A stretch of 64,000 bases of DNA from an uncultured Candidatus Melainabacteria bacterium (GCA_934691935.1 CAKUTH010000001.1:222967-286966); one strand, 5' to 3'. Positions 1 to 15,334 are shown, numbered from the stretch's first letter. The notes: generated from the sequence alone by a model not told the origin. Numbers and translations are program-made.

Positions 1-51
1 ATAACATTTGCCCATTTATACCATTTGCAGTTATAATCATTTCTTCAACCA
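1..51 (-). CDS. 5' end of a minus-strand gene continuing beyond the window start (N-terminus MVEEMIITANGINGQML...)
   Basis: Reverse complement of 1-51 reads ATG GTT GAA GAA ATG ATT ... in an open frame to the window edge; product unknown. Confidence 0.2.
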
Positions 52-67
52 TATTATTTATTCCTTT

Positions 68-802
68 CTATATTTCATTTCCATCAACTATTAATTTTGT
101 AGGAGTAAAGGAGAAATACAAATCTCCGCTTTGTCTGCTTATAGCCTTTATTTCAGAATAATATTCATCTTCATAAAATGACATATCTATATCCGCTTTA
201 GCTTTTTTAGGAATAATTTTTGTATTTTTAATTTTAAAATCTCCAAGATTATTATCCAATTTATCGCTTATACTGATAATTCCCTCAAAAGCTTCTATAT
301 CTATATCTTTAAGATTTTCTATTTCAGCAGTTATAATTAAATTACTTTGATAATTGGAAGTTTTAACTTCCCATGTATAATTATCAAATTTTAAATATCC
401 ATCCCTTATTTTTTGTTTTTCTGCACTAATAATTTTTTGTTGTTCGGCTTCCTTGTTTTCTTCTTCTAAATTTTTTTGTATTTTTTTAATCATCTGATTA
501 AAACTTTTTCCTTCGAGGTAATCTATTTTATCTTCATTATCACCAAGTGATGCTAATTCTGCCATTGCAATTACAGCTTGAACTTTCTGATAATCATCTT
601 TTGAACTGTTTTTTCTTATTCTTTCAATTACATTGTCATAATTTTTTCGTGTTACTTTGGTATTCATAGGATTTGTTAGTAGCTTAAATGTTAAAACAAC
701 AAATGATAAAATAATTAATGAACAAATAATATAAGTTATAATTTTCCACTTACTAACTATAAAATCTTTAATTTGTGTAAATATAATTTTTAGGTTTTTC
801 AT
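68..802 (-). CDS. hypothetical membrane-anchored protein (one N-terminal TM helix, coiled-coil/Lys-Glu-rich ectodomain)
   Basis: 244-aa ORF. Hydrophobic segment IITYIICSLIILSFVVLTF near the N-terminus. No recognisable catalytic motif. Divergent from the XRE gene. Confidence 0.5.
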   Translation of the reverse strand: MKNLKIIFTQIKDFIVSKWKIITYIICSLIILSFVVLTFKLLTNPMNTKVTRKNYDNVIERIRKNSSKDDYQKVQAVIAMAELASLGDNEDKIDYLEGKSFNQMIKKIQKNLEEENKEAEQQKIISAEKQKIRDGYLKFDNYTWEVKTSNYQSNLIITAEIENLKDIDIEAFEGIISISDKLDNNLGDFKIKNTKIIPKKAKADIDMSFYEDEYYSEIKAISRQSGDLYFSFTPTKLIVDGNEI

Positions 803-961
803 ATTTTTACCTTTCTTGCATTCAAATGCAAATTTTGATTAATTTTATTTTGCAATATGCACATATACTTGCATAAAGGTAAAAGAAATTCAACTTATTT
901 TGCGGTTAAGGTTAATTCATTTTTACAAGTATTTCATAAAGAATATATTGTGAGGTGAAAA
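803..961. promoter_or_regulatory. divergent promoter region with TGCA-type inverted repeats (TTGCATTcaAATGCAA at 816-831; TATGCA...TGCATA at 856-875), candidate operators for the adjacent XRE regulator
   Basis: Inverted repeats read directly from the sequence. Location lies between divergent starts at 802 (-) and 962 (+). Confidence 0.3.
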
Positions 962-1282
962 ATGTCTGAATTAAAAAAGCTTTTAGGAAAAAGGATTAGA
1001 GAAATAAGAGTGGCGAGAAACTTAACACAAGAAGATTTATCAGAATTAACTGATATAGGCGCTTCTAGTATAAGTAAAATTGAAAGCGGTCATTTTCATC
1101 CTACTGATGAAAACCTTGAAAGAATTGCAAAAGCCCTAAACGTTGAACCTTACAAACTATATATGTTTAATCATCAGAAAGATACAAAAGAACTCCTGCA
1201 AGACATCCAAACAAAGCTAAACAAAGCAACAGATGAGGAAATAAAACTGGCTTATAAAGTTTTGAACGGGATTTTAGATTAA
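962..1282 (+). CDS. XRE-family (Cro/C1-type) helix-turn-helix transcriptional regulator
   Basis: 106 aa. LGKRIREIRVARNLTQEDLSELTDIGASSISKIESG is a canonical HTH_XRE. An RBS-like GAGGTG lies upstream. The 3' end overlaps the convergent 809-aa gene by 4 nt. Confidence 0.8.
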   Translation: MSELKKLLGKRIREIRVARNLTQEDLSELTDIGASSISKIESGHFHPTDENLERIAKALNVEPYKLYMFNHQKDTKELLQDIQTKLNKATDEEIKLAYKVLNGILD

Positions 1283-3708
1283 TTTTTTTTTTGAAACTCT
1301 GATAAAATATTAGAGTATTCGGAAATATCATTATGATCAATCCAATGTCTTGCAAAATGTGGAATATCATTTTCTTCTAACTGATCAAAATAAAAACTTT
1401 GTTGAGGTTTATCTTGTGGTTTATATTGAATTATGAAATCGCTTAGTAGAGTAAATATTTCAGAGTGTTTATCATTTTTAGATAAAAGTAGGTTTATCAA
1501 ATTAATTCCTTGATATAAAATCTTTTTATTCTTTAACTTTTCAAAATAAATAATTATATTTTGAATTAAATTTTTAATTATTTCCTTATTTCGCATATCT
1601 GCATTATTATAAGCTTGTACAGCTAAATTTACAAAATGTACAAAATCTTCTATATATAAACTAGGAAATGTTTCTGAGTTAGTATATTTTTCTAAAATAC
1701 TTAAGAAAATAGAGTAGAGTTTTTCTAATAATATACTAGATGCATCTAATAGTAATTCTTTTTGATAATTAGTAGCATTTATTCTTCTAATAAACAAAAA
1801 TATGCATTTTTGGATATTATTTAAAGCTTCTGAAATTCTATTTATACTAATAGTATTATTACTATCAAATAGTGTTTTTGCTGAACTTTCAAACAAATCA
1901 AGAAAATTAGCTATGCAATTAAAACTTCGTTCGAAATACACATTATCGTCAAAATCATAAACTAATATAGCATTATAAACTTGATCTAAGGCATTTACAT
2001 AATGCGTAATCAATGAAGAACCGTTAATTATAGCATTTTTATAAGGGGTCTTAATATATGGAGAATTGTTTAATATATCTGTAACAGATTTCAAATTCAA
2101 ATCTCTACCAATATTATTAAAAAACGTAGAAAAATCACTTGTATATGTATTATATGTTATTAGTAATTCAAAAGTTTTTACAAAAGCTTCTTTAACTTTG
2201 TTTTCAATATAATCTGTATCTATAGACATTTTTTCTATTAAATTGTACATAGCAATATTATAAAAAATGTTAATTAAATCGGTAATTATAAGGCTTATAA
2301 GATTGATACACCAAGCATTGTCTGTTACTTTTTTTGCATTGTTTAATCTCCAAATAATTTCAGCTAACGCACTTAAATCCTCTACTACTCCTGTTGCTTC
2401 ATTTATTGAGTGATTAAATATAAGTTTATGAATAAACTTTCGTAAAGAAATAATTGCATCACGAGGAGCAGAAGTGTTTTCTAAATTTATTGAAATTATA
2501 ACAAATTCTTGTGCATTTTTTTGAAAGGCAAAAAAACCAATAGTTTGTATAGTATGAAAGCTATTTTCATCAGTTTTTTCATTTATTGCACAAATACCGA
2601 TTTTCTCATTTAAATCAACAATATGTTCTGGAAATGACTGATATTTTAACTTCACAGATAAAATAAATAAATCTTTAATTTTATATGCAAGAAACTGGTA
2701 AAATTTTGTTTCAAAATCATTTTTATATAATTGATTATAGGTTCTTACAATATTAATAAGAGCATTATTACAAGTTAAAAAGTCATTTAAATTATTTGCT
2801 CTCAAGAAATTTTCAGCTTGTCTAAAAATTGGTTCTACTTGTTTTTTTAATTCTTCTATTGTTGTTTCTGAAATTGTATAGTATTTTTTTCTATTAATAC
2901 CCCAAAGTTTATATTTAATAAAATATTTTATCCCTTTTTTATTCACATCGTTAATAAGAGTTTTATCGGAAGAAATCTTCCAACTTTTAATAAAATTAAT
3001 AGTATAGATTTCATATAGTTTAAGAAGAGTATCAAAATTCATCATGAAAGATATATTAATTGCAATTGTTATTAATTTTAAAACAAGATAAATTGATGCT
3101 ATTAGGACTAATAAATCAATAAAATTATTTGAGCCTTTATAGTAAAAAATAAATGATGCTGTTGTATAAATAGCTAATATTATGAATAAGAAAATATTTG
3201 TATTTTTCCATTGCTGAAATATAGACTTAAAATCAGAATATTTGTTTTCAAAGTGTTGTAGTGTAGCAAATAAAATAGTTAAAACAATAGATGATACTGT
3301 AATAACAATTCCGATAGTTTCAAATACGGGATGTTTATTATTATTTAAAGCTGTTGGAATATTCCAATATGCATAAATATAATATACAAATAAAAATGAC
3401 ATGCTAACATCAAGTATTTTGTCAATAAATTTTGTTATTCTGAAAGGTTCTTTATTTAAGTTATGCAAAAATTTATAAATATTGTTGATAATTAAACTAT
3501 TAAAAGATGTGTTTTGCCTATATATTTCAATTAATATAACAATAGGAATTGCGATAAGAATGGCATAAATTGTAAAGCAATTAAATAAATGCAAATAATA
3601 CATTATCCCGACTATACTAATAGTTATAATAGTTCCTAAGAACAAATAAACTAAGTTGATAAGAATTTTACAACACAAAGAATTTATATTTATTTCAAAA
3701 TTATTCAT
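1279..3708 (-). CDS. large membrane protein: about 6 predicted N-terminal TM helices (first about 230 aa) plus an approx. 570-aa helical soluble domain of unknown function. Third gene of the SIR2 operon.
   Basis: 809-aa ORF. Several hydrophobic stretches (IINLVYLFLGTIITISIVGIMYY, IYAILIAIPIVILIEIY, IGIVITVSSIVLTILFATL, IFLFIILAIYTTASFIFYY, LLVLIASIYLVLKLITIAINI). The start ATG overlaps the stop of the upstream 104-aa ORF (ATGAATAA, 8-nt overlap). Very low GC. Confidence 0.7.
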   Translation of the reverse strand: MNNFEININSLCCKILINLVYLFLGTIITISIVGIMYYLHLFNCFTIYAILIAIPIVILIEIYRQNTSFNSLIINNIYKFLHNLNKEPFRITKFIDKILDVSMSFLFVYYIYAYWNIPTALNNNKHPVFETIGIVITVSSIVLTILFATLQHFENKYSDFKSIFQQWKNTNIFLFIILAIYTTASFIFYYKGSNNFIDLLVLIASIYLVLKLITIAINISFMMNFDTLLKLYEIYTINFIKSWKISSDKTLINDVNKKGIKYFIKYKLWGINRKKYYTISETTIEELKKQVEPIFRQAENFLRANNLNDFLTCNNALINIVRTYNQLYKNDFETKFYQFLAYKIKDLFILSVKLKYQSFPEHIVDLNEKIGICAINEKTDENSFHTIQTIGFFAFQKNAQEFVIISINLENTSAPRDAIISLRKFIHKLIFNHSINEATGVVEDLSALAEIIWRLNNAKKVTDNAWCINLISLIITDLINIFYNIAMYNLIEKMSIDTDYIENKVKEAFVKTFELLITYNTYTSDFSTFFNNIGRDLNLKSVTDILNNSPYIKTPYKNAIINGSSLITHYVNALDQVYNAILVYDFDDNVYFERSFNCIANFLDLFESSAKTLFDSNNTISINRISEALNNIQKCIFLFIRRINATNYQKELLLDASSILLEKLYSIFLSILEKYTNSETFPSLYIEDFVHFVNLAVQAYNNADMRNKEIIKNLIQNIIIYFEKLKNKKILYQGINLINLLLSKNDKHSEIFTLLSDFIIQYKPQDKPQQSFYFDQLEENDIPHFARHWIDHNDISEYSNILSEFQKKN

Positions 3709-4015
3709 CGTCTTTTATTAGCATACTCCTACCATTTTTATTTATTGTATATAATGTTATAAAATGAAATATAATTGTTGCTAAAGTTGCAAAAAAACAC
3801 CAAATTATAGCAAACCAAAATAAGACAGGTTTTAAGTTAAAAGAAAGAGTTAAATTTATTTGTAAGTTGTTTATCAAAAAATAAATAAATTTAATCGTAA
3901 TTATATAAAAAATTGTAGCTATTAGTATAGATAAAAAATCTAATATAAATAATTCTAGAAATTCTTTTTTATTCTTTTTTATGATAGATATTAAATTAAC
4001 AAATTTCTCTTTCAT
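3701..4015 (-). CDS. small polytopic membrane protein (2-3 TM). Middle gene of the SIR2 operon.
   Basis: 104 aa. TM segments FLELFILDFLSILIATIFYIITIKFIYFLI and VLFWFAIIWCFFATLATIIFHFITL. An AAGGAATAT RBS lies 67 nt downstream of the SIR2 gene stop. Its stop overlaps the next start. Confidence 0.6.
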   Translation of the reverse strand: MKEKFVNLISIIKKNKKEFLELFILDFLSILIATIFYIITIKFIYFLINNLQINLTLSFNLKPVLFWFAIIWCFFATLATIIFHFITLYTINKNGRSMLIKDDE

Positions 4016-4082
4016 ACATATATTCCTTTTCTTAATTATAACAAAAATATACTTAAGAAAAGATTAATTCATTCATAATATT

Positions 4083-7000
4083 TTAGATTAGTTTTTTTAT
4101 TATATCCATTATTTCTTTATATTTTTTCTTATCAGTTATGTTTTTAAGTTGCTCAATAGACTTTTCTATAAATTTATCTCGTTCATTTTGATTATTTTGG
4201 AAGTATGTTTTTACACTATCTAACGATGATGGTTTGATATATCTTAAAATTTCTATGTTTATTTCACTAAAATCAATATCATCATAATGAGAACTAATTT
4301 TTATAATCATAAGATTATCATTATAATTTTCTTTGAAATTGTAATCCATAATTTGTTCAAAATAGTTTTCTTTATATGTATCCAAATCTTCAATTAAGTC
4401 ATATATAACTTTTTTACTTGTTAATTTATTATTTTTTATAAAGTAATCAATTAAACTTAATAGCTGAAGCAAAGTTACATTATAAGGGAAATACCCAACT
4501 CTGCCAGAATTAAAAACCAACTCATTTTTTAATAATAAAAGAACTTTTTGAACTAATTCTTTATCTATTTTTACAATTTTAGAGAATATAGATTGAAATA
4601 GAATATCTACATACTGCTTAGTTGAACAATTTTCTAAAAGATTATGAGCTATACCATATAAATCATCTTGCTCAATGATAAATGGGTATATATAAGTAAT
4701 AACAAATAATTTCCAATAAGGATCATTGTTTATTTTATTAACTAGTGATAGAAATTTCTTTTGATTTTTTAATTTATAAGAATTGTTAGAACTCTTTAAA
4801 ATACCACAAATGTGTCTTAACATACAATCGTAATTAAATGCTTTTGCAACATGAGCATCTATATTTATACTTTCTTCTATTGTTAAGTACAAGAGTTTTT
4901 CAAGTTGTTCACTATTAAGAAAATCTTTTTGAGGATGATTTTTATTATAAACATCAACCAAGAAATAATATATTGTTTTATTTTTCGTATTATTAAAATT
5001 AAACTTATTTTCAAGTTCATTATTATTAACATAATTAATTAATTTAATTAAATTATCAATGATTTCAAATATTTCTTCTTGGGAAAAATCAATTTTACTA
5101 AATAATTTAAAAAACAAGTGAAATTTACTATAAAAATTATTATCAATTTTATAATTAATAAATCCAGAAATAATATTTTTATATGCATTGATTAACCTTA
5201 TTTTATCAACATCTGGTTTGTGTAATTTTAAAATTGATGGAATATCCTTTAAATTTTTCTCTATATCCTTTTTATTGCAATTTTCAATAAGCATATAAAA
5301 ATCAAAATAATCGAAACTAGGAACAACATTTGTCCCCCACATGAGTTTTTCTTTGTTAGCATCAACTTCCAAACCTGTCAAATAACTTATAAAAATGCCA
5401 TCAAAAGCTTTACGGAAAATCTTTTTGTATTCTTCATAATATTCAAAAATATAAAAATTGTAATTACTATAAGCAAAAATCTCATTTAAATATCCATATA
5501 AATCATGTATATATGAATTAGAAGAACTACCCACATTTTTTACATATCGGTATGTCGTTGATAGCTTATCATAACTATCAGTTACATTACCATAAAGTTC
5601 TTTGAAAATATCAAAACTGGTTATATATTTAATAATATCTTTAATTTCACTAGGGATAAATCGTTCAATTAAATCTTCAATATTAATTTTTAAATATTGA
5701 TCTTTTATGTTTTCAATATCTTTATCATCTGATTTAAAATAATACTTATTGTGTAGTAGCTTTCCTAAATAAAACTGATTAAAGCTTGCAATTACATATA
5801 ATATAAAATTATTATTTTTATTAGCTTCATAGGAAATTTTTTCAAATTCGTAATAAGCCTCTTTGTGTTTTCCTAATTTTATCAATAAGTAAGCTTTTTT
5901 GAATATATTAACATTGTTTTCAGAATAATCAATATCTATATTTTTAAGTTCATTATTTATACCATCGGAATTGTATAATATAATATCTTTCAATTCTTCA
6001 TTATTTGATGGGATTGGTTCTGTAGAGTATATTTTAGACCAAATATATTCTATTTTAGTTTTTTCATCTTTTGATATTTTATATAAATTTCTTAAATCAT
6101 CTATTACATTTTGTAATTTATTCTCAATTACCGTATCTTTTTCAGTTGAGCGATATTTATTATAAATATCGTATATTTGTTTTTTTATATCATCTTCAAG
6201 ATAAGAGTTATCGTATAATAATTCCAAATATTTATCATTGGAAAGATTTTTATCTATTAATACTATTTTAAATTTTAGTTCATTTAAACTTTTTATAAGG
6301 TATGGTTTTAAACCATATAGGCCATATTGCATAAATACTTTTGGATTACATCCAAATACTTTAGCTAGAATATTATTGGGAATATAATTTAAGCACTCTA
6401 AATACTTTAATTTACGATAACAGTTTTCTATATATTCGGAATTATCGTTAGAAACATTCTTTTTCTGTATAAAGTATAGTAACTTAAATAGTCTTTCACC
6501 ATGTCCTTTTTCTAAGGCTTTGAGCTTATATTTTTTATTGTAATCAATTAAAATATCATCTGATACAAATTGTTTGATATCATCTTGAATTTCATCATAG
6601 TAAAGAGAAAAAATTCCCATTTCTTTTAAGTATTCAAATTTTACTCTTTTTTCTTCTTTTGATTTGTTGATATTTTTATATTCATCAGTATTCAATAAAT
6701 ATGCTGGCTGGCATGAATTACCTAATATATCATGTATCCATTGAAATAGTTTTCTAACATTTGCATCTTCAGCTGAAAAACCTAAAAAAAGAATTGTATT
6801 TGTTGCAATTAAGCCCTTTACAAATGTTTCAATTAATTTGAAATTATTTGAATATGTGTCATAATCTCGTTCTTTTAATACAATCTTATCAAGTTCTCCA
6901 TGCATCTTTATAATTAAATTATTATTAGGAGCAATGGCAAGATCTCTATCGCAAGAAACTTTTGAATAAGGTGTTTTTGCAATACTTTCAGCTGTTTTTT

Positions 7001-7421
7001 CTAACAAATCATCATAATTTGTCGTAATTATATGTTTGGGATCTAATTCAACAATTAAATAATTGATTGGATTTGGCTCCAGTTTATTAGAAAAGATATT
7101 GTGTAATTTATTATTGTATTCTTTTTCTCCAAATTCATTAAAGTAGTATTGCGGGATTTTTAAACACTCATCTGTATTATAGTGAATTTTGTGTTTTTTT
7201 AGAATTTCTACTTGTTCTTCTGTTAAAGTTTCTTCTAGTTCCTCTGGGATTATCTTTTTTTCAATACCCAAATCTTGAGCTAGTTGATTAACTAAATCAT
7301 TCCAACTTGGCAAATTTGAATTTTGTGAAACTCCAGCTCCAACAAAAACAATTAATTTCCCTTTTTGTTGTGCTTCTTGAATTTTTTTTATACTTGTTAA
7401 TGTAAAATTCCTTAAATTCAT
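4083..7421 (-). CDS. SIR2-family (SIR2_2; ThsA/DSR-like) NAD+-hydrolase-domain protein with a long C-terminal helical/TPR-like domain. Candidate defence sirtuin.
   Basis: 1112 aa. The N-terminal approx. 260 aa carry all SIR2_2 hallmarks: GKLIVFVGAGVSQNSNLPSWNDLV (Rossmann GAGxS + PxW), IITTNYDDLLE (catalytic Asn), IIKMHGELD (catalytic His) and ILFLGFSAEDANV. The remainder is a helical repeat region. An AAGGAAG RBS precedes the ATG. The gene is first in a three-gene minus-strand operon. Confidence 0.85.
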   Translation of the reverse strand: MNLRNFTLTSIKKIQEAQQKGKLIVFVGAGVSQNSNLPSWNDLVNQLAQDLGIEKKIIPEELEETLTEEQVEILKKHKIHYNTDECLKIPQYYFNEFGEKEYNNKLHNIFSNKLEPNPINYLIVELDPKHIITTNYDDLLEKTAESIAKTPYSKVSCDRDLAIAPNNNLIIKMHGELDKIVLKERDYDTYSNNFKLIETFVKGLIATNTILFLGFSAEDANVRKLFQWIHDILGNSCQPAYLLNTDEYKNINKSKEEKRVKFEYLKEMGIFSLYYDEIQDDIKQFVSDDILIDYNKKYKLKALEKGHGERLFKLLYFIQKKNVSNDNSEYIENCYRKLKYLECLNYIPNNILAKVFGCNPKVFMQYGLYGLKPYLIKSLNELKFKIVLIDKNLSNDKYLELLYDNSYLEDDIKKQIYDIYNKYRSTEKDTVIENKLQNVIDDLRNLYKISKDEKTKIEYIWSKIYSTEPIPSNNEELKDIILYNSDGINNELKNIDIDYSENNVNIFKKAYLLIKLGKHKEAYYEFEKISYEANKNNNFILYVIASFNQFYLGKLLHNKYYFKSDDKDIENIKDQYLKINIEDLIERFIPSEIKDIIKYITSFDIFKELYGNVTDSYDKLSTTYRYVKNVGSSSNSYIHDLYGYLNEIFAYSNYNFYIFEYYEEYKKIFRKAFDGIFISYLTGLEVDANKEKLMWGTNVVPSFDYFDFYMLIENCNKKDIEKNLKDIPSILKLHKPDVDKIRLINAYKNIISGFINYKIDNNFYSKFHLFFKLFSKIDFSQEEIFEIIDNLIKLINYVNNNELENKFNFNNTKNKTIYYFLVDVYNKNHPQKDFLNSEQLEKLLYLTIEESINIDAHVAKAFNYDCMLRHICGILKSSNNSYKLKNQKKFLSLVNKINNDPYWKLFVITYIYPFIIEQDDLYGIAHNLLENCSTKQYVDILFQSIFSKIVKIDKELVQKVLLLLKNELVFNSGRVGYFPYNVTLLQLLSLIDYFIKNNKLTSKKVIYDLIEDLDTYKENYFEQIMDYNFKENYNDNLMIIKISSHYDDIDFSEINIEILRYIKPSSLDSVKTYFQNNQNERDKFIEKSIEQLKNITDKKKYKEIMDIIKKLI

Positions 7422-7583
7422 TTAACTTCCTTGAAATAATAAAACAAAAGAATATTGTAATAGTTTTTATTATTATAATTATAGCAAAAACAAGTTATTT
7501 TATTTCAGTAATTGCTTTAATTCATAAAATTTATTAATTTCGTTTAATAATAGGTTCGAATTAAAATCTATTACCTGCCCCAT

Positions 7584-7617
7584 AAAATAGACTTCGACTT
7601 TTGTCGGAGTCTATTTT
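7584..7617. other. perfect 15-bp stem / 4-nt loop hairpin (AAAATAGACTTCGAC-TTTT-GTCGGAGTCTATTTT) inside a 410-bp non-coding region
   Basis: Inverted repeat read directly from the sequence (one G.U wobble). There is no convergent gene upstream on either strand for it to terminate, so its function is unknown. Confidence 0.5.
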
Positions 7618-7832
7618 ATATGTAAGATGAGGGAGAGAACCCATTACAAGACGGAGTCTTGTTTTGGTTCGAACGCGAGGTGGCAGAGGCTAAAGCACTT
7701 TCAAGTCAATTTTAGCTACACCCATAGAAAATGCTGTGACAAAAATCGCTATCTTTATTATTACATCTTGAAACAAAAAATTTGTCATGGTATAAATGCA
7801 ACTATATCAGATTACAGATTAGGGAATTTTTT

Positions 7833-8165
7833 ATGAAAATTGCAAAGATATCTTATGGTCAAAACTTTTGTGGCAATGAAAACAATAATAGAAAATCTTT
7901 TTTGGATAATTTACATAGCCACGTCAAAAATTCAGCTGACATGACAGACACGATACTTGTTTCAAGAACAATTTTCAAAGGCTATCTTGGCATAATGACA
8001 GGCACAACCCTTGTGACGCTTGCAGGACTAGTTAACAAAGCTAAGCATCCAAAAGTTTTCAAAGGCGTAATGGGAGCAGGACTAATTGCGTCATTATACG
8101 GCACTTGGGCTTTTGTCAGACCGTTTGTTTTAAAAGACGCAAAAGGCGTTGCAAAAACTAAATAA
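7833..8165 (+). CDS. small hypothetical membrane protein
   Basis: Internal ATG with an AGGGAA RBS (the ORF-track start at 7782 is probably too far upstream). C-terminal hydrophobic segments GTTLVTLAGLV and GAGLIASLYGTWAFV. Confidence 0.45.
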   Translation: MKIAKISYGQNFCGNENNNRKSFLDNLHSHVKNSADMTDTILVSRTIFKGYLGIMTGTTLVTLAGLVNKAKHPKVFKGVMGAGLIASLYGTWAFVRPFVLKDAKGVAKTK

Positions 8166-8166
8166 G

Positions 8167-9519
8167 CTACAAACTATTACTAAAGAAATCTACACCACCA
8201 AGAGCTTGATAAAGATTTATCATCGCGATTATTTCATTAATTTTTAATGATACTTCTTGCTTTTGAATTATAAGTTCAACTTCTTTTTTGTACAAAACAT
8301 CCAACAAATCTGATACACCAACCTGAATTTTTTGTTCTTCCAACGTCATATCTTGCTCACTCAAATTCAATCTTTCTTCAACTATTGAATGTCTTTTTGC
8401 TGTTGATTTGAGGGTATAAAGCGCATCGTTTGTTTCTTGAATAGATCTTAATATTGTTTTGTCATAATTTTGAATAGCAATTTCGTATTCATCTTTTTGC
8501 AATTTCAGCATCTGGATTTTTCTTCCACCAGTAAACAAGTCCCAAGTTGGTGCAAGCGCTAAGTTTGCAAGAAATTTGTCTGAGCTTGAAAGGTTGTAAG
8601 CGTTGAATCCTAAAGTTCCCACAATATTGAAACTCGGTAAAAGTTCTCTTTTTGCAACTCTTACATCTATCCCGATTTTTTCAAGATTAAGTTCCGATTT
8701 GACACAATCTGGGCGTTTTAAAATTACATCTGTCTGAATAGTTTCAGGCACAACGATTTTTGCTTTTATGTTATCATAACTCGTTCTATCAATTTGCGCA
8801 AACGACCTGTCTGAAAGCAAAACGCTAATTTGATTTTTCAAAACATCTTGTTTTTCAAGCAGATTATCTAATTCCTCTTTATAATTTGTCAGAGCCTTTT
8901 TTTCTTGGATTAAGTCATTAATATTTGCAGTTCCTAACTCATATTTTTCCTCAACAGCACCTATCACTTGCTTTTGTGTACTTATCAAATCTTTTTGCAA
9001 CGCAATTAATTTGTCAGCTTTTATCAAATTGTAATAATCTGTAGCAAACGCAGATGTCAAGTAAATGTATGCTGATTTTTCTTCTTGCTTTATCATTTCG
9101 TAACGTTTTTTCTGAGCTTTTGTTCGCAAAAAATTTTTACCGTAAATATCAATTTCATAATTATATGACAATGGCAAAAGAAAACGAGTTTCAGTATAAT
9201 CAGGGATTGTAAGTTTACCAAAGACTTCATCAGAAGAATGAAAAATCCTTCCAATATACCCGTCAAAACCAACGTAAGGCAACTGATTTGCTAACGAAAT
9301 TTTAACAAGCCTTTGTGCCTCTTGAACCTTTAGGGATGATGCTTTCAAGTCATTGTTGTTTTGATAAACCGTTGTAAGATTTTTTATCAAAACATCATCG
9401 TTAAAGTTTTGCCAAAATGGCAAATTTAAATATCCAATTAAATAGTTGTCGGCGTTTTTTGCGTACCCTGGCGAACACAACATAAGTATTAGGGTTAATG
9501 TATAAATAAACTTTTTCAT
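8167..9519 (-). CDS. TolC-family outer membrane efflux protein (OMF)
   Basis: 450 aa. Lipoprotein-like signal (LILMLCSPGYA). Pattern of two repeated coiled-coil/beta segments typical of the OEP family. Divergent from the MarR-EmrAB genes. Confidence 0.75.
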   Translation of the reverse strand: MKKFIYTLTLILMLCSPGYAKNADNYLIGYLNLPFWQNFNDDVLIKNLTTVYQNNNDLKASSLKVQEAQRLVKISLANQLPYVGFDGYIGRIFHSSDEVFGKLTIPDYTETRFLLPLSYNYEIDIYGKNFLRTKAQKKRYEMIKQEEKSAYIYLTSAFATDYYNLIKADKLIALQKDLISTQKQVIGAVEEKYELGTANINDLIQEKKALTNYKEELDNLLEKQDVLKNQISVLLSDRSFAQIDRTSYDNIKAKIVVPETIQTDVILKRPDCVKSELNLEKIGIDVRVAKRELLPSFNIVGTLGFNAYNLSSSDKFLANLALAPTWDLFTGGRKIQMLKLQKDEYEIAIQNYDKTILRSIQETNDALYTLKSTAKRHSIVEERLNLSEQDMTLEEQKIQVGVSDLLDVLYKKEVELIIQKQEVSLKINEIIAMINLYQALGGVDFFSNSL

Positions 9520-9654
9520 ATATTTCCTTCGTTATTATAATAACACAAAAATTAAAAAATAAAAGTATCTAGTTTATAAAATATTAATATTATTAACTTG
9601 TACCTATTGCAAATAAAAATTATTGAGTTATCATAATAACAGGAGAACCCCAAA

Positions 9655-10101
9655 ATGCTTAACGATATATTCATCAAACTAATCGGCAATGCAATTGTAC
9701 AAGCAGGCAGAGCTATCAAGGTACACAATCTTGAAATGTTCGCCAACAAAAACTTTAACATAACTCCAGAACAGTTTTTGGTACTGAGCATGCTTAACGA
9801 CGATGCTGAACTTTATCAAAACAAACTGTGCGAAGAATTATACAAAGATAAGTCAAACATGGCTCGAATCCTTTCTGTTTTGGGGAAAAAGGGTTTAATA
9901 GAAAAATTTCAAACAACAGAAAATAAAAAACAGGTTAATAAAATAAAAATTACCCCAAAAGGCAAACAGGTACGCGACGAAATTACTCCGATTATGAAAA
10001 ATTCTCGAGAGCACTATCTTGACGGAGTTACTCAAGACGAAATGTATACCTGCTTGAAAGTTCTCAGTAAAATACAAGAAAATTTAGCAAAAAAGGAATA
10101 A
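9655..10101 (+). CDS. MarR-family transcriptional regulator
   Basis: 148 aa. Winged-HTH core ITPEQFLVLSMLNDDAELYQNKLCEELYKDKSNMARILSVLGKKGLIEK. First gene of the efflux operon. Confidence 0.8.
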   Translation: MLNDIFIKLIGNAIVQAGRAIKVHNLEMFANKNFNITPEQFLVLSMLNDDAELYQNKLCEELYKDKSNMARILSVLGKKGLIEKFQTTENKKQVNKIKITPKGKQVRDEITPIMKNSREHYLDGVTQDEMYTCLKVLSKIQENLAKKE

Positions 10102-10103
10102 AA

Positions 10104-11168
10104 ATGGCAACAAATAAGAAATCGAAAGATTTTTTTAAGGAAGAAGCACTTAAACGTTTACAAGCAATAAAAAAGAGAAGAAAGAAAAAGAGAAAACCTT
10201 ATCAAAAGAAAAGAATTGTAATCCCTGCAACGATTATGACAATATTGTTGTTGTGCGGAATTCACTCGTTCTTAATCTCTTTAAAATACCAAAGCACCGA
10301 CGACGCTTTTATCGAAGGTAGACTAATTAACGTTGCACCGAGAGTTTCGGGGCAAGTTATTGAGCTATATTTTGATGATAACGATTTTGTAAAACAAGGA
10401 CAATTGCTTTTGGAACTTGACCCAAATGACTATCAAAACAAAGTTGACGAACTTGAAGCAAGCATAAAAGAAGCAAAAGCCAACACTGATACCTCATTCA
10501 ATGATACCGAAAAATCTCAGGCTGATTTGGCTCAAGCAAATAAAAACTTGGATTTTGCGAAAAAAGATTACGAAAGATACAAAAAGTTGTCCAAAGACGG
10601 CTTATGTACAAAACAAGAACTCGATAGAGCGGAAACAGCATATAAACAAGCCCTCGATAGAGAAAGAGCAATGGATGCGAGCTTGAAGTCATCTCAATCT
10701 AAACAAGACGCATCAAGTGCAAATATTGAAAAATTAGAAGCACAACTTGAACAAGCAAAGCTCAATTTGTCTTACACAAAAATCTACGCGCCACAAGACG
10801 GGAATATTTCAGCCAGAAATGTAGAAAAAGGGAATTATGTACAAGTAGGACAATCACTTACATCAATAGTTTCACCAAATATTTGGATAGTTGCAAACTT
10901 TAAAGAAACACAACTAACAAACATGAAGCAAGGACAAGACGTTAGTATAAAAATCGATACCTACCCTAGGAAAAGATTTAAGGGAAAAGTTGATAGTATC
11001 CAAAGGGCGTCGGGTGCGAAATCGAGTCTATTCCCGCCAGAAAACGCTGTAGGCAGTTACATCAAAGTAGTACAGAGAATCCCTGTAAAAATTAGGTTTA
11101 CAGAAGATATTTCCGACTACAATATCGCCCCTGGCATGAGCGTAATTCCAAAGGTTAAAATAAAATAA
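10104..11168 (+). CDS. emrA: HlyD/EmrA-family membrane fusion (periplasmic adaptor) protein
   Basis: 354 aa. N-terminal TM, long coiled coil, then a lipoyl/beta-barrel region (YTKIYAPQDGNISARNVEKGNYV). Stop overlaps the emrB start. Confidence 0.8.
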   Translation: MATNKKSKDFFKEEALKRLQAIKKRRKKKRKPYQKKRIVIPATIMTILLLCGIHSFLISLKYQSTDDAFIEGRLINVAPRVSGQVIELYFDDNDFVKQGQLLLELDPNDYQNKVDELEASIKEAKANTDTSFNDTEKSQADLAQANKNLDFAKKDYERYKKLSKDGLCTKQELDRAETAYKQALDRERAMDASLKSSQSKQDASSANIEKLEAQLEQAKLNLSYTKIYAPQDGNISARNVEKGNYVQVGQSLTSIVSPNIWIVANFKETQLTNMKQGQDVSIKIDTYPRKRFKGKVDSIQRASGAKSSLFPPENAVGSYIKVVQRIPVKIRFTEDISDYNIAPGMSVIPKVKIK

Positions 11169-12721
11169 TGGAAACCAAACCTCAAGAAGAAAAACAAATT
11201 CCATTGTGGCTAATGTCACTAATAGTTACAATGCCGACATTTTTCGCATTTTTAGCAACAAGCGCAACAAATGTTGCTCTACCGCATATTGCAGGATCGT
11301 TCGGGTCTACAAACGACGAAGCAAAATGGGTCGTTACGAGTTATATGATTGCAAACGGCATATTTTTACCGCTAACTGGTTGGCTGGAAAGAAGACTTGG
11401 ACGTTTAGATTTTTTAAAAATATTTATTTCATTATTCACTATCGGTTCAATTATTTGTGCACTTGCACCAAACCTGCTTATACTAATTCTTGGCAGACTA
11501 GTACAAGGTGTTGGGGGCGGGGTTTTAATGCCATTATCACAATCAATTCTACTGCAAGAATATCCACGCGACAGAAAAGGTGATGCCATGGCGGTTTTCA
11601 TCTTCGCCATAATGGTATCATCAATCATGGGTCCAACTGTTGGTGGTTGTTTGGTCGATTATTTTTCATGGCAATGGATTTTTATAATCAACATACCTAT
11701 CGGAATTTTATCATTAATATTAATCCCGTTGGTAATAAGAGATACGCAAAAACAACGCAAGAAAGAAAAAACTGACATCATTGGGTTTACTTTTCTTGTT
11801 TTGTGGTTGTTTTCAATGCAAGTTGTCTTGGACAAAGGTCAACAATACGGTTGGTTTGACTGCGACTGGATATGCTGGTTAAGTTTATTCTCCTTAGGTT
11901 GTATGATGTTCTTCGCAGTATGGGAACTCGAAACAAACGAACCAATTGTTAATTTGCGGGTATTTAAAGATTTAAACTTCGTTGTCGGGACAATTTTAGG
12001 GGCGTTAATCAATATTATGTCCTGTGTCACAATAATCCTCTTACCACAATTTTATCAAGGTTTGATGGGATATACAGCGTCCTTGACAGGTTTAGTTTTA
12101 GCAAGCAGGGTAATCGCCTGTTTTGCTCTCGTATTTATCGGGAAATTATGCCAAATATATGACCTAAGACTGCTTATTGCTATTGGATTTCTCTCAATCG
12201 GTTCATCAATTGCAATATGCACAAACCTGAACCTTCAAGTCGCTCCTGGAACAATTTTTATTTCAAACGTATTATTCGGAATTGGCACAGTATTTACGCT
12301 CGTACCTATTTCCGCACTGGCACTCGGTACATTACCGAAAGATAAAATTGCAGACGCGGCTGGTGTTCATAGCCTCTCAAAATGTGTGACTGGTTCAATG
12401 TTTACTTCACTTGCATCAAGTTTTGCAATCAGATTGGCACAAGTTCACCAAACGTATTTAGTCAAAAACATGTCTATTAACAACCCAATTTTTATAAAAC
12501 ATTTTATGGAACTAAAACACGCATTTATGGTTAACCACGCATCAATCACAGCCAGCAAACAGGCAAATGTAATACTTTACAAACAACTAATCGTTCAATC
12601 GCGCTTGTTTGCATTCACAGACATTTTTCAATTTGCAATGACTGTAACATTTCTAGCAATCCCTCTGATTTTCTTGTTAAAAGTAAGTTCAGACGCAAAA
12701 GCCCAAAAGAGTAAATCATAG
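11168..12721 (+). CDS. emrB: MFS DHA2-family (EmrB/QacA-type, 14-TM) drug:H+ antiporter
   Basis: 517 aa. Motif A-like LGRLDFLKI and GRLVQGVGGG. 14 hydrophobic segments. Translationally coupled to emrA. Confidence 0.8.
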   Translation: METKPQEEKQIPLWLMSLIVTMPTFFAFLATSATNVALPHIAGSFGSTNDEAKWVVTSYMIANGIFLPLTGWLERRLGRLDFLKIFISLFTIGSIICALAPNLLILILGRLVQGVGGGVLMPLSQSILLQEYPRDRKGDAMAVFIFAIMVSSIMGPTVGGCLVDYFSWQWIFIINIPIGILSLILIPLVIRDTQKQRKKEKTDIIGFTFLVLWLFSMQVVLDKGQQYGWFDCDWICWLSLFSLGCMMFFAVWELETNEPIVNLRVFKDLNFVVGTILGALINIMSCVTIILLPQFYQGLMGYTASLTGLVLASRVIACFALVFIGKLCQIYDLRLLIAIGFLSIGSSIAICTNLNLQVAPGTIFISNVLFGIGTVFTLVPISALALGTLPKDKIADAAGVHSLSKCVTGSMFTSLASSFAIRLAQVHQTYLVKNMSINNPIFIKHFMELKHAFMVNHASITASKQANVILYKQLIVQSRLFAFTDIFQFAMTVTFLAIPLIFLLKVSSDAKAQKSKS

Positions 12722-12758
12722 AGATTTATCCATTGGACTCATTTTATAAACATTATAC

Positions 12759-13385
12759 TTAAGACTCTTTCAGATGTTTTACGTGTTTATAAACATAAAT
12801 TACGCCCAACACTAGCACTATCAATACTATTGCGATATCGAATTTGTGCCAAAGATGTTTGAAGGCTTCCATATTTTGTCCCATTTTCATACCGACATAA
12901 ACCAGCGCATAGCTCCAAACCAAAGAGCCTAAAAACGTTAATGTGAAAAATACTCTTTTTTTAGCTCTCAAAATCCCTGCTGGCAAAGAAATAAATGTTC
13001 TTACAACAGGAAGCATTCTGCATACAAAAAATGCCCAATCGCCATATTTTTCAACCCATTTATCTGCTTCTTCCAAATCTTTGTGCGAAATTAAAAAATA
13101 TTTGCCATATTTTTCAACGAATTTTCTTCCGCCAAAAAATCCGAGATAATAAGATGGAATTGAGCCTAACACACAACCAAAAGCACCCGCCAACGCAGCA
13201 ATATGGAAATTCATTTCTCCCTTACTTACAATGTATCCTGCAAACGGCAATACAGCTTCACTCGGCAACGGAATATTGCAAGATTCAATTGCCATAAGCA
13301 AACTGATGCCCCAAGGTCCCATTACATTGATTATGTGCTCAATCATGTTTATCAAAAAAGTTAAAATTGTATTTACTAATTCCAT
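12759..13385 (-). CDS. DedA/SNARE-associated (TVP38) family membrane protein
   Basis: 208 aa. LPSEAVLPFAGY...G and the LPVVRTFISLPAG motif are characteristic of DedA. Confidence 0.75.
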   Translation of the reverse strand: MELVNTILTFLINMIEHIINVMGPWGISLLMAIESCNIPLPSEAVLPFAGYIVSKGEMNFHIAALAGAFGCVLGSIPSYYLGFFGGRKFVEKYGKYFLISHKDLEEADKWVEKYGDWAFFVCRMLPVVRTFISLPAGILRAKKRVFFTLTFLGSLVWSYALVYVGMKMGQNMEAFKHLWHKFDIAIVLIVLVLGVIYVYKHVKHLKES

Positions 13386-13389
13386 ATTT

Positions 13390-15114
13390 TTATTCCTTCA
13401 ATAATTTCTGTGCTAATTCACTTTCTGTTCTACCGTTTAGAGTTTTGCTGATTTTTTGTAATTTTTGAGCTATCAATTCCATATTGTCAGTCCATACAAA
13501 ATTATCAAGCACATATTTTTCAGCCTTTTCAAATTCTCCATCAATTTGTATTCTAATAATTTCAGCCAACATTTTCTTCGCGATAGGAACAACTTTGTCA
13601 ATGTTTACGTGAATTTTTCCATCAACGATATCGTAAGCTCCGTTTTCTGAAAAATATTTATTTTGCATAACTGTTCTAACCCTATGAGCCTGACTTAGCG
13701 TAGGTTTTGATTTCAAGAAATTATCAGTAACTGTTGTGACAATAATTTGTTTGCGTTGTTGTTCAGTATACATACCTAATTCAGTCAACAAATCAACAAA
13801 AGCCAAAGATCCCATATCAGCCTTATTTTCTTCAATGATATTTCTGTATTTACCTAGAGTTTCACAAGCCTTTTTAGGTCCAAGTGAGTGGGCATTTTCG
13901 TGTCCAATCGTAAACCAGTGATCAGCTTCATCAAGATAAAATTGATGCTGGTCTTTATCTAAAATTGCATCTAGCCTTTCTTGAAGTTTTTTCATATCAC
14001 TAATAAAACGAATTTGTCTGTGATAAACATTACGTCTGCCACCACCTATTTTTAATGACAATTTGTCATCATTTGGCAGGTTTTCGGCTAACGTAATTCC
14101 GCCACGATAAGCTCCAACGTCCCCGCAAACTGCGACTAAATCAACATCAACCATTGTTTGTTGAGTTTCTTTGTCAGTAGATATATTTTGTTCATATTCA
14201 TCGGCAAACGGCATATTTTTAGCAAGTGTAGGAAGATATTTTTTTATTGCCATCAAATCTTCCGTACCTTTTTTATTCACAATACCAACACGACCGCCAA
14301 GAAAATCTTTTGGGATTGGTGTAATTTCAAATTTTTCAAGTAAAGCTGATAACTCCTTGTTTTCAATGATTGTTCCAGTCATTTCATCTTCATAATTTTC
14401 TCTTGTGATAGTAAATTCTAACGGAGTGTCTTGCAATGTCGCCCATTTTTTATCCGCATAAGCATCTAACATCGGGTCAGCTGTTCTCAATGCCTTTGCT
14501 TGCAATTTCAAATATTCTGCAAAATCAGAATTTGTAGATGTTTCAGATGCTTTGTCGATTTCATCAGCCATTTTTTCAAAATCATCTTTGAATTTGTCAA
14601 TATAGTCAATTCCAACAAGCTCATCACCGCATCTTTCAACAACAGAACGCTGTGTGAGAATTTTTTTAACATCCTGAATTTTACCTTCATTTAACATTTT
14701 TGTTAAAATTTTGTGAAATTCTTCTTTTGACAAATCTTCTGGATAAACACCTTTGCCAGGTTTTTCTGTAATTCCTTTTGCCAAGTTAATTTTGTTTGAC
14801 ATAGTATCAATAGCATTTATCCCTTTTTGAGCATCAAACAATATTTTTGTAAGCTCAGCTTGTTTATTACCTTTTGCAATTTCATTGTCCAAAAATGCTT
14901 TGAATTCTAAATTGTAATGGCAATCCAATTGCATATTAATCTTTTCTAAAATATAACCAGCTTTTACCAAATGTTTAAGAGTTTCTTTATCACCGTCTTC
15001 AAGCGCCAAATATTCTGGGGCATCAACCTTTAGCATTTTTTTTGTAGTTAAATAATCTTTACTGGTGCGCTTTTCCAATTCTTCAATTGTCAGGTTCAAT
15101 TCAAACTCTCTCAT
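13390..15114 (-). CDS. zinc metallopeptidase, M49 (dipeptidyl-peptidase III)-like
   Basis: 574 aa. HWFTIGHENAHSLGP (HExxH) followed by EENKADMGS, which resembles the second M49 motif EExR/KAE/D. Family assignment is tentative. Confidence 0.5.
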   Translation of the reverse strand: MREFELNLTIEELEKRTSKDYLTTKKMLKVDAPEYLALEDGDKETLKHLVKAGYILEKINMQLDCHYNLEFKAFLDNEIAKGNKQAELTKILFDAQKGINAIDTMSNKINLAKGITEKPGKGVYPEDLSKEEFHKILTKMLNEGKIQDVKKILTQRSVVERCGDELVGIDYIDKFKDDFEKMADEIDKASETSTNSDFAEYLKLQAKALRTADPMLDAYADKKWATLQDTPLEFTITRENYEDEMTGTIIENKELSALLEKFEITPIPKDFLGGRVGIVNKKGTEDLMAIKKYLPTLAKNMPFADEYEQNISTDKETQQTMVDVDLVAVCGDVGAYRGGITLAENLPNDDKLSLKIGGGRRNVYHRQIRFISDMKKLQERLDAILDKDQHQFYLDEADHWFTIGHENAHSLGPKKACETLGKYRNIIEENKADMGSLAFVDLLTELGMYTEQQRKQIIVTTVTDNFLKSKPTLSQAHRVRTVMQNKYFSENGAYDIVDGKIHVNIDKVVPIAKKMLAEIIRIQIDGEFEKAEKYVLDNFVWTDNMELIAQKLQKISKTLNGRTESELAQKLLKE

Positions 15115-15302
15115 ATCAAATCTCCTTCTTATGCACTTATTATAGCATAAAAATGTATAAGTAACCGTAGTTCACAACTAGTTTTATGGCTTTAAATTTT
15201 AGAGATACTTAAACAAGTTCAATATGACCATATAGGTTAATATAAGTGTATAAAAGACCTTATTTAGTTTTGTAAATTATTCGGGATTTTGAGATTATAA
15301 AA

Positions 15303-15334
15303 GTTGAAAAAAATGTTAAAATATGTTACAATAG
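15303..15334 (+). promoter_or_regulatory. near-consensus sigma70-type promoter TTGAAA-17nt-TACAAT
   Basis: Read directly from the sequence. A roughly 105-nt leader follows, containing a stem (GGAAAATCCTTTA / TAAAGGTTTCC) and a 16-codon uORF, before the ATG at 15441. Confidence 0.4.

Follow-up and report, generated by a model that had tools for sequence, protein, structure and literature searches.

A predicted DSR2-family NADase gene and a rare membrane-protein gene pair, probably two independent modules in the cargo slot of an integrative island from Melainabacteria

Near the start of the window, i.e. the whole 64,000-nt stretch of DNA that was analysed, three co-oriented genes on the minus strand encode proteins of 1112, 104 and 809 aa (Table 1), and their ORF coordinates agree with the original prediction. 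DNA of about 21% GC is rich in stop codons, so ORFs of 809 and 1112 codons cannot be chance, and conserved homologues were found for both products. The genes are tightly packed as had been described, with an AAGGA ribosome-binding site (about 4028..4024) inside the 67-nt spacer between the SIR2 gene and the small gene, and an 8-nt overlap of start and stop (ATGAATAA) between the small and the large gene. Downstream, the 809-aa gene converges on an XRE-type regulator gene, overlapping it by 4 nt with overlapping stop codons. The predicted low-GC block beside this regulator is real, as GC content is 0.20-0.26 in window positions 1-7600 vs 0.30-0.38 across the other 56 kb.

Table 1. Coordinates of the features of the locus within the window and what each assignment is based on.
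Feature	Position	Strand	Basis or remark
Low-GC integrative island, part within the window	1..7583	.	L001 backbone, GC profile
XRE-type HTH regulator, element backbone	962..1282	+	Pfam HTH_3, E=1.7e-17
Large membrane protein gene, 809 aa	1279..3708	-	ORF call
All-helical alpha-solenoid of the 809-aa protein, after linker	residues about 281-809; nt 2868..1282	-	AF2 model
TM region of the 809-aa protein, about six helices	residues 11-222; nt 3708..3034	-	AF2 model
Small membrane protein gene, 104 aa	3701..4015	-	ORF call
Spacer between SIR2 gene and small gene, 67 nt	4016..4082	-	sequence
Second extended -10-like box TGTTATAAT in the 67-nt spacer	4043..4035	-	sequence
SIR2 cassette, about 3.4 kb	4050..7475	-	blastn breakpoints of L001 vs L012 and L013, junction sequences
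DSR2-family SIR2 gene, 1112 aa	4083..7421	-	ORF call
Codon of catalytic H174	6902..6900	-	1112-aa gene
Codon of catalytic N135	7019..7017	-	1112-aa gene
SIR2 NADase domain, N-terminal	about residues 1-290 of the 1112-aa protein		followed by middle and C-terminal alpha-solenoid domains
TGCTATAAT box in leader	7486..7478	-	sequence
Element leader, left end of island, 108 nt	7476..7583	-	92% identical to L012/L013 positions 9572-9679

The island extends beyond the first position of the window as far as a large serine recombinase, as can be followed on the identical contig L001 (window position = 13709 minus L001 coordinate). The backbone order in L001 is XRE, 244 aa, DUF4429, 177 aa, MerR-like, 54 aa and serine recombinase, beyond which lies a conserved chromosomal flank; at the other end, similarity to the related locus L017 stops at window-equivalent position about 7619. 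Whichever cargo gene occupies the slot, the backbone XRE gene (88-96% identical) is convergent with it and directly borders it; this neighbour is the 809-aa gene in L012-L017 and SIR2 in L025-L027.

Sequence profiles and structure models identify the 1112-aa product as a full-length member of the DSR2 family and a predicted NADase. Its translation contains the motifs FVGAGVSQNSNLPSW, ITTNYDD (N135), IIKMHGE (H174) and LFLGFSAEDANV, which confirms the proposed DSR/ThsA-type SIR2 signature, both catalytic residues (Asn and His) being intact, and the domain also held up in a profile search (Pfam SIR2_2, E=1e-22, residues 129-259). Both N135 and H174 are invariant across 40 homologues and line up, within TTNYD and KMHG, with the DSR2 motifs in a phmmer search of the PDB, where DSR2 was the best match (E=9e-32) and this single-sequence search reached the SIR2 part only. 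The helical C-terminal region had been described as DSR2-like, and homology indeed spans the full length: positions 5-1036 of a 40-sequence family profile correspond to residues 22-1003 of B. subtilis DSR2 (E=2e-100), and the same profile matches the C-terminal-only DSR2 construct 8ygk (E=1e-20). Moreover, the top 46 Foldseek matches of the AF2 model (pLDDT 86) are all DSR2 chains, with TM scores of 0.64/0.72 against full-length chains (E=1.8e-26, ~1170 columns). The PADLOC Dsr2 HMM was absent from the matches of the full-length protein (E<=0.1); it (PDLC02184) matches an N-terminal fragment of the 86-89% identical SIR2 homologue in L032 (2e-18). In the structural alignment the 1112-aa protein is only ~17% identical to B. 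subtilis DSR2; what triggers it may therefore differ from a tail tube protein. [quoted passage not shown]

The two downstream genes encode membrane proteins. Two TM segments were found by hydropathy in the 104-aa protein, within the predicted range of 2-3, and form a hairpin behind a Lys-rich N-terminus. Similarly, the proposed 6-TM N-terminus of the 809-aa protein corresponds to 5-6 segments within residues 1-225 (hydropathy, AF2 helices). The soluble domain that follows in the AF2 model (pLDDT 81.5, pTM 0.73) adopts an alpha-solenoid fold, is probably cytoplasmic according to a positive-inside reading of the loops, and contains no enzyme fold detectable by structure comparison. The best-conserved part of the large protein is TM4-TM6, with 75% mean pairwise identity vs 52% in the C-terminal solenoid. 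Neither protein matched a family in Pfam, PADLOC, NCBIfam or PHROG, and the 809-aa protein had no sequence match in the PDB. The large protein belongs to a rare family, with 28 clusters in a set of 1.84 billion (1.84e9) representatives and 20 clusters at 90% identity, and a small 2-TM gene lies directly upstream of the large gene in every member examined, including L028 and L030. This pairing persists at 25% and even down to 14% identity, with the two genes always adjacent and usually overlapping.

The pair and the SIR2 gene occur together as well as apart among 37 loci fetched and compared by tblastn, two of which (L001, L002) are contigs identical to the window. Both were present in three relatives (L017, L031 and L032, the SIR2 gene being disrupted in the last), while 20 loci had the pair without SIR2 and eight had SIR2 without the pair; the other four hold a pair-family member with no SIR2 gene within the available sequence, in two of them the sequence breaks off on the 5' side of the pair, and in the other two the partner gene is too diverged for tblastn. 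SIR2-free pairs were found at L003-L016 and L020-L024, among them a pair of 88% identity whose element has the same backbone, and all pair homologues at <=63% identity lack a SIR2 gene. Conversely, an 89%-identical SIR2 gene stands alone at a different locus with spacers of 550-770 nt on both sides (L033-L037), and a 67%-identical one fills the same cargo slot of the same backbone with no membrane genes (L025-L027). These partner-free genes fit DSR2 as a single-gene system without an obligatory partner, and SIR2 homologues number more than 1100 vs 20 clusters for the pair. The combination recurs where the 809-aa proteins share at least 77% identity: besides the window, L017, L031 and L032 have it, as do probably two more clusters, judged by contigs of equal length. 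Identities to the window differ between the modules (SIR2 87% and 809-aa 95% in L017; 89% and 78% in L031), and L032 encodes an 812-aa protein identical to that of L031 despite its disrupted SIR2 gene. The association is thus facultative in both directions, and the prediction of a triad conserved across genomes fails. A few close relatives have SIR2 next to the pair, so the absolute form of refutation that had been proposed, that they never co-occur, does not describe these loci either.

The junctions explain how the arrangement in the window is built. Pair-only elements (L012-L015), otherwise 92% identical, lack the SIR2 cassette, and the 108-nt leader that is located 5' of SIR2 in the window lies directly 5' of the small gene in them. 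L001, L012 and L013 part ways immediately upstream of ATGGGGCAGG, and the 67-nt spacer is near-identical to the pair-only leader in the alignment from the box through the ATG. Stand-alone SIR2 loci carry the same box as the leader 5' of SIR2, and there is one TGnTATAAT box per module, one for SIR2 and one for the membrane pair. SIR2 thus sits as a discrete cassette within the leader of the pair. Comparison at the DNA level shows that this gene recombined, together with its own promoter-like box, into the leader at the shared TTTTTGYTATAATTA box, by which each module retained one copy of the box. The three genes had been called almost certainly co-expressed, and tight packing speaks for this, but the wording is too strong because the pair keeps a TGTTATAAT box of its own in the spacer. 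A scan of the spacer found no terminator-like site between SIR2 and the small gene, so transcription may continue from SIR2 into the pair; such read-through is no sign of functional dependence.

At least five kinds of mobile elements have the pair as cargo, at integrase-proximal accessory positions and in neighbourhoods with integrases, primases and Mu/Tn7-like genes. Neighbours of defence or toxin-antitoxin type comprise PDC-S26 PDDEXK with an AAA_15 ATPase, GmrSD, AlwI, SLFN_AlbA_2, HipAB (adjoining the pair in L021) and Imm_superinfect, the last encoded on tyrosine-integrase elements that carry the pair. The distant member L030 has an apparently ordinary chromosomal neighbourhood in a complete genome.

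We consider it probable that the locus consists of two independent modules, a DSR2-family SIR2 gene and a membrane pair, stacked in a mobile-element slot. Judged by sequence, the SIR2 gene is of a known kind of single-gene anti-phage NADase, and the pair represents an uncharacterised family that usually occurs without SIR2. The original prediction of one undescribed three-gene system, with the membrane proteins as obligate sensor or effector partners of a DSR-like NADase, gave way to the finding that each module occurs alone. It could draw on the co-oriented and closely spaced genes, on the missing terminator and on the recurrence of the combination in L017, L031 and L032, but such an obligate triad is highly improbable given the 88%-identical pair-only copy, the 89%- and 67%-identical SIR2-only copies, the absence of SIR2 from every pair homologue at or below 63% identity, the single-protein nature of the DSR2 family and the insertion of SIR2 as a cassette with a duplicated promoter box. 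Autonomous modules might still cooperate, being partly co-transcribed and kept together by selection within the element lineage because they provide layered or synergistic protection, e.g. NAD+ depletion plus a block at the membrane. Co-localised defence systems commonly complement each other, which counts for this reading, as do the lack of a terminator between the modules and the persistence of the arrangement (L017, L031) although the 809-aa proteins differ by 22% and the SIR2 proteins by 11-13%. On the other hand, common descent and recombination can explain this persistence, the identities being mosaic, while SIR2 is decaying in L032 beside an intact pair, and the same backbone also occurs with the pair only or with SIR2 only. 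Selection for cooperation seems unlikely, even if keeping SIR2 and the pair together may bring some selective advantage within the clade of at least 77% identity.

Whether the pair acts against phages is a separate matter. Context and architecture make it a plausible candidate for a defence or exclusion module, and we tentatively suggest that it could be an undescribed, enzyme-free and membrane-anchored system against phages or mobile elements, with a solenoid sensor and a TM-core effector, layered behind the DSR2 NADase under a partly shared leader. If this is true, integrative elements spread the pair system as their cargo in Melainabacteria and in a small number of other lineages. Alternatively, the pair might serve mobile elements in another way or have a host-interaction or envelope function, with its placement in accessory slots being incidental; it may for instance be an addiction or toxin-antitoxin-like module with the small TM protein as a holin-like toxin. 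This would agree with the lack of a defence-family match (PADLOC) and of an enzymatic domain, with the chromosomal setting of L030 and with the HipAB genes of L021. It is nevertheless somewhat unlikely, as the pair neighbours integrases in at least five unrelated types of elements, amid restriction, Abi-like and SIR2 genes, which is typical for defence or exclusion cargo, as a membrane core that is better conserved than the solenoid fits a sensor-effector design, and as a protein of ~810 aa is large for an addiction module.

If the two modules are independent, they would represent cargo arranged head-to-tail in a small serine-recombinase integrative island, of which they fill the variable slot; the host is a Candidatus Gastranaerophilales (Melainabacteria) gut bacterium. 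By analogy to published DSR2 work, the SIR2 protein would form a tetramer and bind, through its C-terminal alpha-solenoid, a structural protein of the phage, which for B. subtilis DSR2 is the tail tube; binding would turn on NAD+ hydrolysis and abort the infection, and no partner gene would be required. The 104-aa and 809-aa proteins might form an inner-membrane complex whose variable solenoid senses an invader protein by binding it, while the conserved TM4-TM6 core and the hairpin carry out the response, which would be abortive infection through membrane permeabilisation or superinfection exclusion through a block of DNA entry.

Among known systems, DSR2 is represented by the B. subtilis 29R protein (PDB 8k98, 8wy8, 8z18 and others). 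The likeness lies in a single polypeptide of ~1000-1100 aa, with an N-terminal SIR2 domain containing Asn and His followed by alpha-solenoid domains, and in close homologues that stand alone in defence islands. The 1112-aa protein differs in being ~107 residues longer than the solved DSR2, at ~17% identity, in its host, a melainabacterium and not a Firmicute, and in having an unrelated pair of membrane genes downstream. Thoeris ThsA has a closely related SIR2 domain, with PADLOC ThsA1 as the best HMM (6e-30) and PDB ThsA entries at 1e-26 to 1e-31 with the 1112-aa family profile. However, only residues 86-264 within the SIR2 part match (positions 60-239 of the 478 in the profile), and the C-terminal 800 residues are DSR2-like; ThsA was rejected, as the protein has no SLOG/STALD domain and its neighbours gave no TIR (ThsB) or SLOG hit. 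DSR1 was rejected with an NCBIfam Dsr1 equivalog score of only 20.5 bits over residues 15-73 (cut-off 1400), and PADLOC Dsr1 matched the N-terminus only (0.0021). SIR2-HerA, SPARSA (SIR2-pAgo) and SIR2-STAND (Avs) were likewise discarded, since neither the protein nor its neighbours had HerA, pAgo or STAND hits (Pfam, PADLOC). For the membrane pair, Kiwa (KwaAB) and Zorya (ZorAB) offer an analogy, with adjacent small and large inner-membrane genes, a large non-enzymatic cytoplasmic extension and a location in defence or mobile-element hotspots. Membership was rejected, as PADLOC found no KwaA, KwaB, ZorA or ZorB match. The pair also lacks a MotAB-like signature and an associated nuclease, and its fold is an alpha-solenoid, where those systems have a DUF4868 domain or a long coiled-coil tail. 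Superinfection-exclusion proteins of the Sie/Imm type from prophages and satellites, to which no homology of the pair was detected, are similar in being small or polytopic inner-membrane proteins whose genes lie beside an integrase or repressor gene within an integrated element; they are far smaller than the 809-aa protein with its solenoid of ~530 residues, and the pair has a conserved two-gene organisation.

The three minus-strand open reading frames (ORFs) were recovered by ORF calling exactly where the original prediction had placed them, and what it had observed in the sequence was confirmed. The 1112-aa product carries every SIR2 motif that had been quoted (GAGVS…LPSW, TTNYD with N135, KMHG with H174, and LGFSAED), and Pfam SIR2_2 matches its residues 129-259 with E=1e-22. 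A spacer of 67 nt, with an AAGGA ribosome-binding site in it, separates the SIR2 stop from the small gene, which in turn shares the start/stop overlap ATGAATAA with the large gene. Hydropathy and the helices of the AF2 models agree with the transmembrane (TM) content described earlier: the 104-aa protein has two helices, and residues 11-222 of the 809-aa protein contain about six. The low-GC block next to an XRE regulator was likewise borne out, GC being 0.20-0.26 in window 1-7600 vs 0.30-0.38 in the other 56 kb. The chromosomal efflux cluster adjoining the island (window 8167..12721; GC 0.32-0.38) is ordinary, and neither tRNA or tmRNA genes (ARAGORN) nor Rfam families at the gathering threshold were found across the 64-kb window (1..64000).

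Positions of the cargo genes, promoter-like boxes and neighbouring efflux cluster in the window
Feature	Position	Strand	Remarks
SIR2 gene, 1112 aa	7421..4083	-	ORF call
Small gene, 104 aa	4015..3701	-	ORF call
Large gene, 809 aa	3708..1279	-	ORF call
XRE-type HTH gene	962..1282	+	convergent with 809-aa gene, 4-nt overlap
TTTTTGYTATAATTA box before SIR2	7486..7478		within 7490..7476
TTTTTGYTATAATTA box before small gene	4043..4035		within 4047..4033
TolC-like OEP	8167..9519	-	efflux cluster beside island
MarR	9655..10101		efflux cluster beside island
HlyD-type membrane fusion protein	10104..11168		efflux cluster beside island
MFS transporter	11168..12721		efflux cluster beside island

The 1112-aa protein is a member of the DSR2 family with intact catalytic residues, and close copies of it stand alone. 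Used as a single query, it has B. subtilis DSR2 as its best PDB sequence match (E=9e-32), residues 3-248 aligning with residues 22-251 of the DSR2 chain, including both catalytic motifs. A word-index search returned 1164 homologues, mostly SIR2 proteins ~1000 aa long that are found in genera such as Bacillus and Clostridium, and a family profile built from 40 homologues spans DSR2 residues 22 to 1003 at E=2e-100 and also matches 8ygk, a DSR2 construct without the SIR2 domain (1e-20). Moreover, a Foldseek search of the PDB with the AF2 model (pLDDT 86.2) gave DSR2 chains for all of the top 46 matches, with 8z18_A in first place (E=1.8e-26, TM 0.64/0.72, ~1170 columns). ThsA HMMs cover only the SIR2 part of the protein, the Dsr1 equivalog reaches 20 bits vs a cut-off of 1400 bits, and HerA, pAgo, STAND, TIR and SLOG domains are absent from the protein and its neighbours. 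A DSR-type NADase wired to membrane partners, as originally proposed, would be a new defence architecture, but the evidence points to a divergent, otherwise ordinary DSR2-family gene beside a separate module. The original interpretation is supported in part: it was right about the SIR2/DSR2 type and about the island context, whereas a three-gene system and a novel membrane-coupled NADase find no support.

DSR2 works as a tetramer; when the phage tail tube protein is bound by its C-terminal sensor domain, NAD+ hydrolysis that depends on N133/H171 is activated (PMC10981675). By analogy with the B. subtilis protein, a phage protein would bind the C-terminal solenoid of the 1112-aa protein and switch on a tetrameric NADase, resulting in abortive infection; the trigger itself may differ because the structural alignment to DSR2 has ~17% identity. 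Candidatus Gastranaerophilales are uncultured, non-photosynthetic gut relatives of cyanobacteria, and to our knowledge next to nothing has been described of their phage biology. The SIR2 gene is a divergent new member of the known DSR2 kind in these organisms, and extends DSR2-family defence to them.

The conserved triad expected of a three-gene system did not hold up when genomic contexts were fetched over the whole identity range of the 809-aa family (20 clusters at 90% identity) and tallied by tblastn at all 37 loci. The pair occurs without SIR2 at 41% identity (L003-L006, L023 and L024, following a serine recombinase in L003 and L004), at 55-63% identity in primase-carrying satellite-like elements where a tyrosine integrase adjoins it (L007-L010, L016, L020, L022), at 62% identity with adjacent HipAB (L021), at 78% identity downstream of a Toprim gene (L011), and at 88% identity on the window's own backbone (L012-L015). 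Conversely, a SIR2 homologue 67% identical to that of the window (P0028) occupies the same slot of the same backbone without the pair, abutting the XRE gene directly and preceded by a 449-aa ORF (L025-L027). Another, 89% identical (P0024), is found on its own at another chromosomal site on five contigs (L033-L037), separated by 550-770 nt from the genes on either side; a UvrD-PDDEXK protein, a WCX-domain protein, HipAB and type I Methylase_S are among the products encoded nearby. Among the 37 loci, SIR2 adjoins the pair only in the window (and the identical contigs L001 and L002), L017, L031 and L032. Each module can therefore occur with or without the other. It had been held against the original prediction in advance if the genes never co-occurred; they do stand side by side in L017, L031 and L032, but the underlying triad is not conserved, and this distribution contradicts an obligate three-gene system, which we consider highly improbable.

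L031 and L032 encode identical 812-aa proteins, but in L032 SIR2 is in two ORFs: a SIR2-domain ORF, cut by the contig end, and a 749-aa ORF (L032 1-3221, compared with L031 6278-9616). We rejected the reading of the latter as a different cargo replacing SIR2; it is 86% identical to residues 364-1112 of the window's SIR2 and represents the C-terminal portion of a SIR2 gene that has been disrupted, either through decay with the pair kept or through an assembly frameshift. The 449-aa ORF (L025 8644-9993; also in L026 and L027) stops 7 nt before the SIR2 homologue and has an RNHSVH motif (Rx4H, HEPN-like) near its C-terminus. Its product was suspected to be ApeA/HEPN-like and has no Pfam or PADLOC match; the ORF may be a further piece of defence cargo, or else may partner the DSR2 copy in these loci. 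The stand-alone SIR2 locus L033 also encodes a second, weaker SIR2_2 protein, type I Methylase_S and DUF5677 (1-456 and 2019-3215), with a further large serine recombinase just upstream, and is another defence-rich mobile island of the same genome group.

The junctions show that SIR2 and the pair were stacked through cassette insertion in the cargo slot of a mobile element. When the window contig L001 was compared by blastn with the pair-only elements L012 and L013, the 108 nt directly 5' of the small gene in the latter were found 5' of SIR2 in the window (92% identity; 7583..7476). Homology starts again at window 4049, 34 nt before the small-gene ATG, and the intervening 3.4 kb (7475..4050) comprise the SIR2 gene with its own 5' UTR. 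The box TTTTTGYTATAATTA, which is similar to an extended -10 element (TGnTATAAT), occurs at both cassette ends and also lies ~75 nt 5' of the ATG in stand-alone SIR2 copies (including L033 and L034). Each module has its own box in front, so each brings a promoter-like box, at which recombination took place. This makes the island a clean natural case of cassette stacking, with junctions resolved to the nucleotide. Since the box lies where the recombination breakpoints fall, cargo cassettes may be swapped at a common promoter box. We relied on conservation of TGnTATAAT across loci because a sigma-70/terminator consensus scan is uninformative in such AT-rich DNA (64 promoter-like sites vs 65 expected); the same scan gave no terminator in the 67-nt spacer. 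Transcription may read through SIR2 into the pair, and the pair may also be transcribed independently.

The XRE stop overlaps the stop of whichever cargo gene occupies the slot, i.e. the 809-aa gene (window, L012-L017) or SIR2 (L025-L027), and the 3' end of SIR2 (CTAATCTAAAAT) has microhomology to the complement of the XRE tail. We considered TAATCTAAAAT after the SIR2 stop as a relic of the XRE tail, implying an ancestral SIR2-XRE junction, and rejected this because stand-alone SIR2 copies share the C-terminus and 3' sequence; its contribution would be microhomology with the XRE tail at most. On the left, the island ends at about window 7583, where L001, L012 and L013 go into different flanks. 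On the other side it runs past the window start to a serine recombinase. The backbone common to the window and L012-L015 continues from the XRE gene beyond the window edge (window 68..802, minus strand, onward; L001 12907-17542) with a 244-aa single-TM protein, a weak DUF4429 protein, a 177-aa protein, a MerR-like 315-aa protein, a 54-aa ORF and a 562-aa large serine recombinase abutting a conserved response-regulator gene. The C-terminus of the recombinase differs with the flank, which suggests an attachment site inside the 3' end of its gene.

The pair forms a conserved two-gene membrane module in its own right. Searches of both proteins against Pfam, NCBIfam, PADLOC, PHROGs and PDB sequences gave only sub-threshold noise (FtsX 0.018, N_NLPC_P60 0.022, Cas11 0.026, S100-A9 0.29), and the 809-aa model had no significant Foldseek match in BFVD. 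An exhaustive HMMER search over 1.84 billion representative proteins, which found the distant members of the 809-aa family, yielded 28 clusters only, 10 of them at E<1e-30, and a third word-index search with a widened alignment returned the same 20 proteins without additions. The family takes in high-GC members of ~770-840 aa at roughly 14% identity. A small 2-TM gene lies directly 5' of the large gene in L028 (131 aa, 4-nt overlap) and L030 (90 aa), and because distant members keep it, the two-gene unit is ancient compared with its association with SIR2. In its AF2 model (pLDDT 81.5, pTM 0.73), the 809-aa protein has about six TM helices, then a linker of poor order at residues 246-276, and lastly an all-helical domain. 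Since the loops at residues 63-99 and 151-171 are rich in Lys/Arg, the positive-inside rule makes a cytoplasmic position probable for the solenoid, as well as for both termini of the hairpin protein. Mean pairwise identity peaks at 75% in TM4-TM6 and drops to its minimum, 52%, in the C-terminal solenoid. The most conserved feature, LQxFxNKYSDF, follows directly after TM4 on the presumed cytoplasmic side (residues ~150-160; window ~3260..3230) and is recognisable even at 14-25% identity, e.g. as IQFIAGSYSHRF and VQSITQRYPAQF.

At least five unrelated element types carry the pair: the serine-recombinase island, tyrosine-integrase/primase satellite-like elements, an integrase/Toprim element, Mu- or Tn7-like elements, and a second serine-recombinase element that also has a ParB-methylase. 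Among the genes nearby are those for a PDC-S26 PDDEXK protein with an AAA_15 ATPase, GmrSD, an EcoRI-type methylase, AlwI, SLFN_AlbA_2, HipAB and Imm_superinfect. In the tyrosine-integrase/primase elements (L007-L010, L016, L020-L022), a divergent gene of 238-255 aa is always located just upstream of the pair (e.g. L009 8849-9565, beginning MLDFILNTAKTT… and with a predicted TM segment); it matches no family, and homology to the 244-aa protein of the window could not be detected. The pair belongs to a rare, unannotated family with a confident model and a mobile, defence-gene-associated distribution. Unannotated families are numerous in mobile-element hotspots, which makes this one a lead rather than a surprise, and a reasonable candidate for experimental defence screening.

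How the pair might act can be sketched only tentatively. The two proteins would join in an inner-membrane complex in which the variable cytoplasmic solenoid would sense an invader protein, whereupon the conserved TM core and the hairpin would permeabilise the membrane or stop DNA entry. That this amounts to a new enzyme-free membrane defence system is possible, though we would not presume it. A non-defence role, e.g. in addiction or envelope function, is somewhat doubtful given the company of defence genes. Selection of the two autonomous modules together for layered defence is compatible with separable cassettes stacked in one slot and with their adjacency in a few loci, and seems rather unlikely to us with the modules so often apart. 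Among known systems, the pair fails the profile tests for Kiwa, Zorya ZorAB and Sie-type exclusion proteins, and its resemblance to all three is by analogy only.
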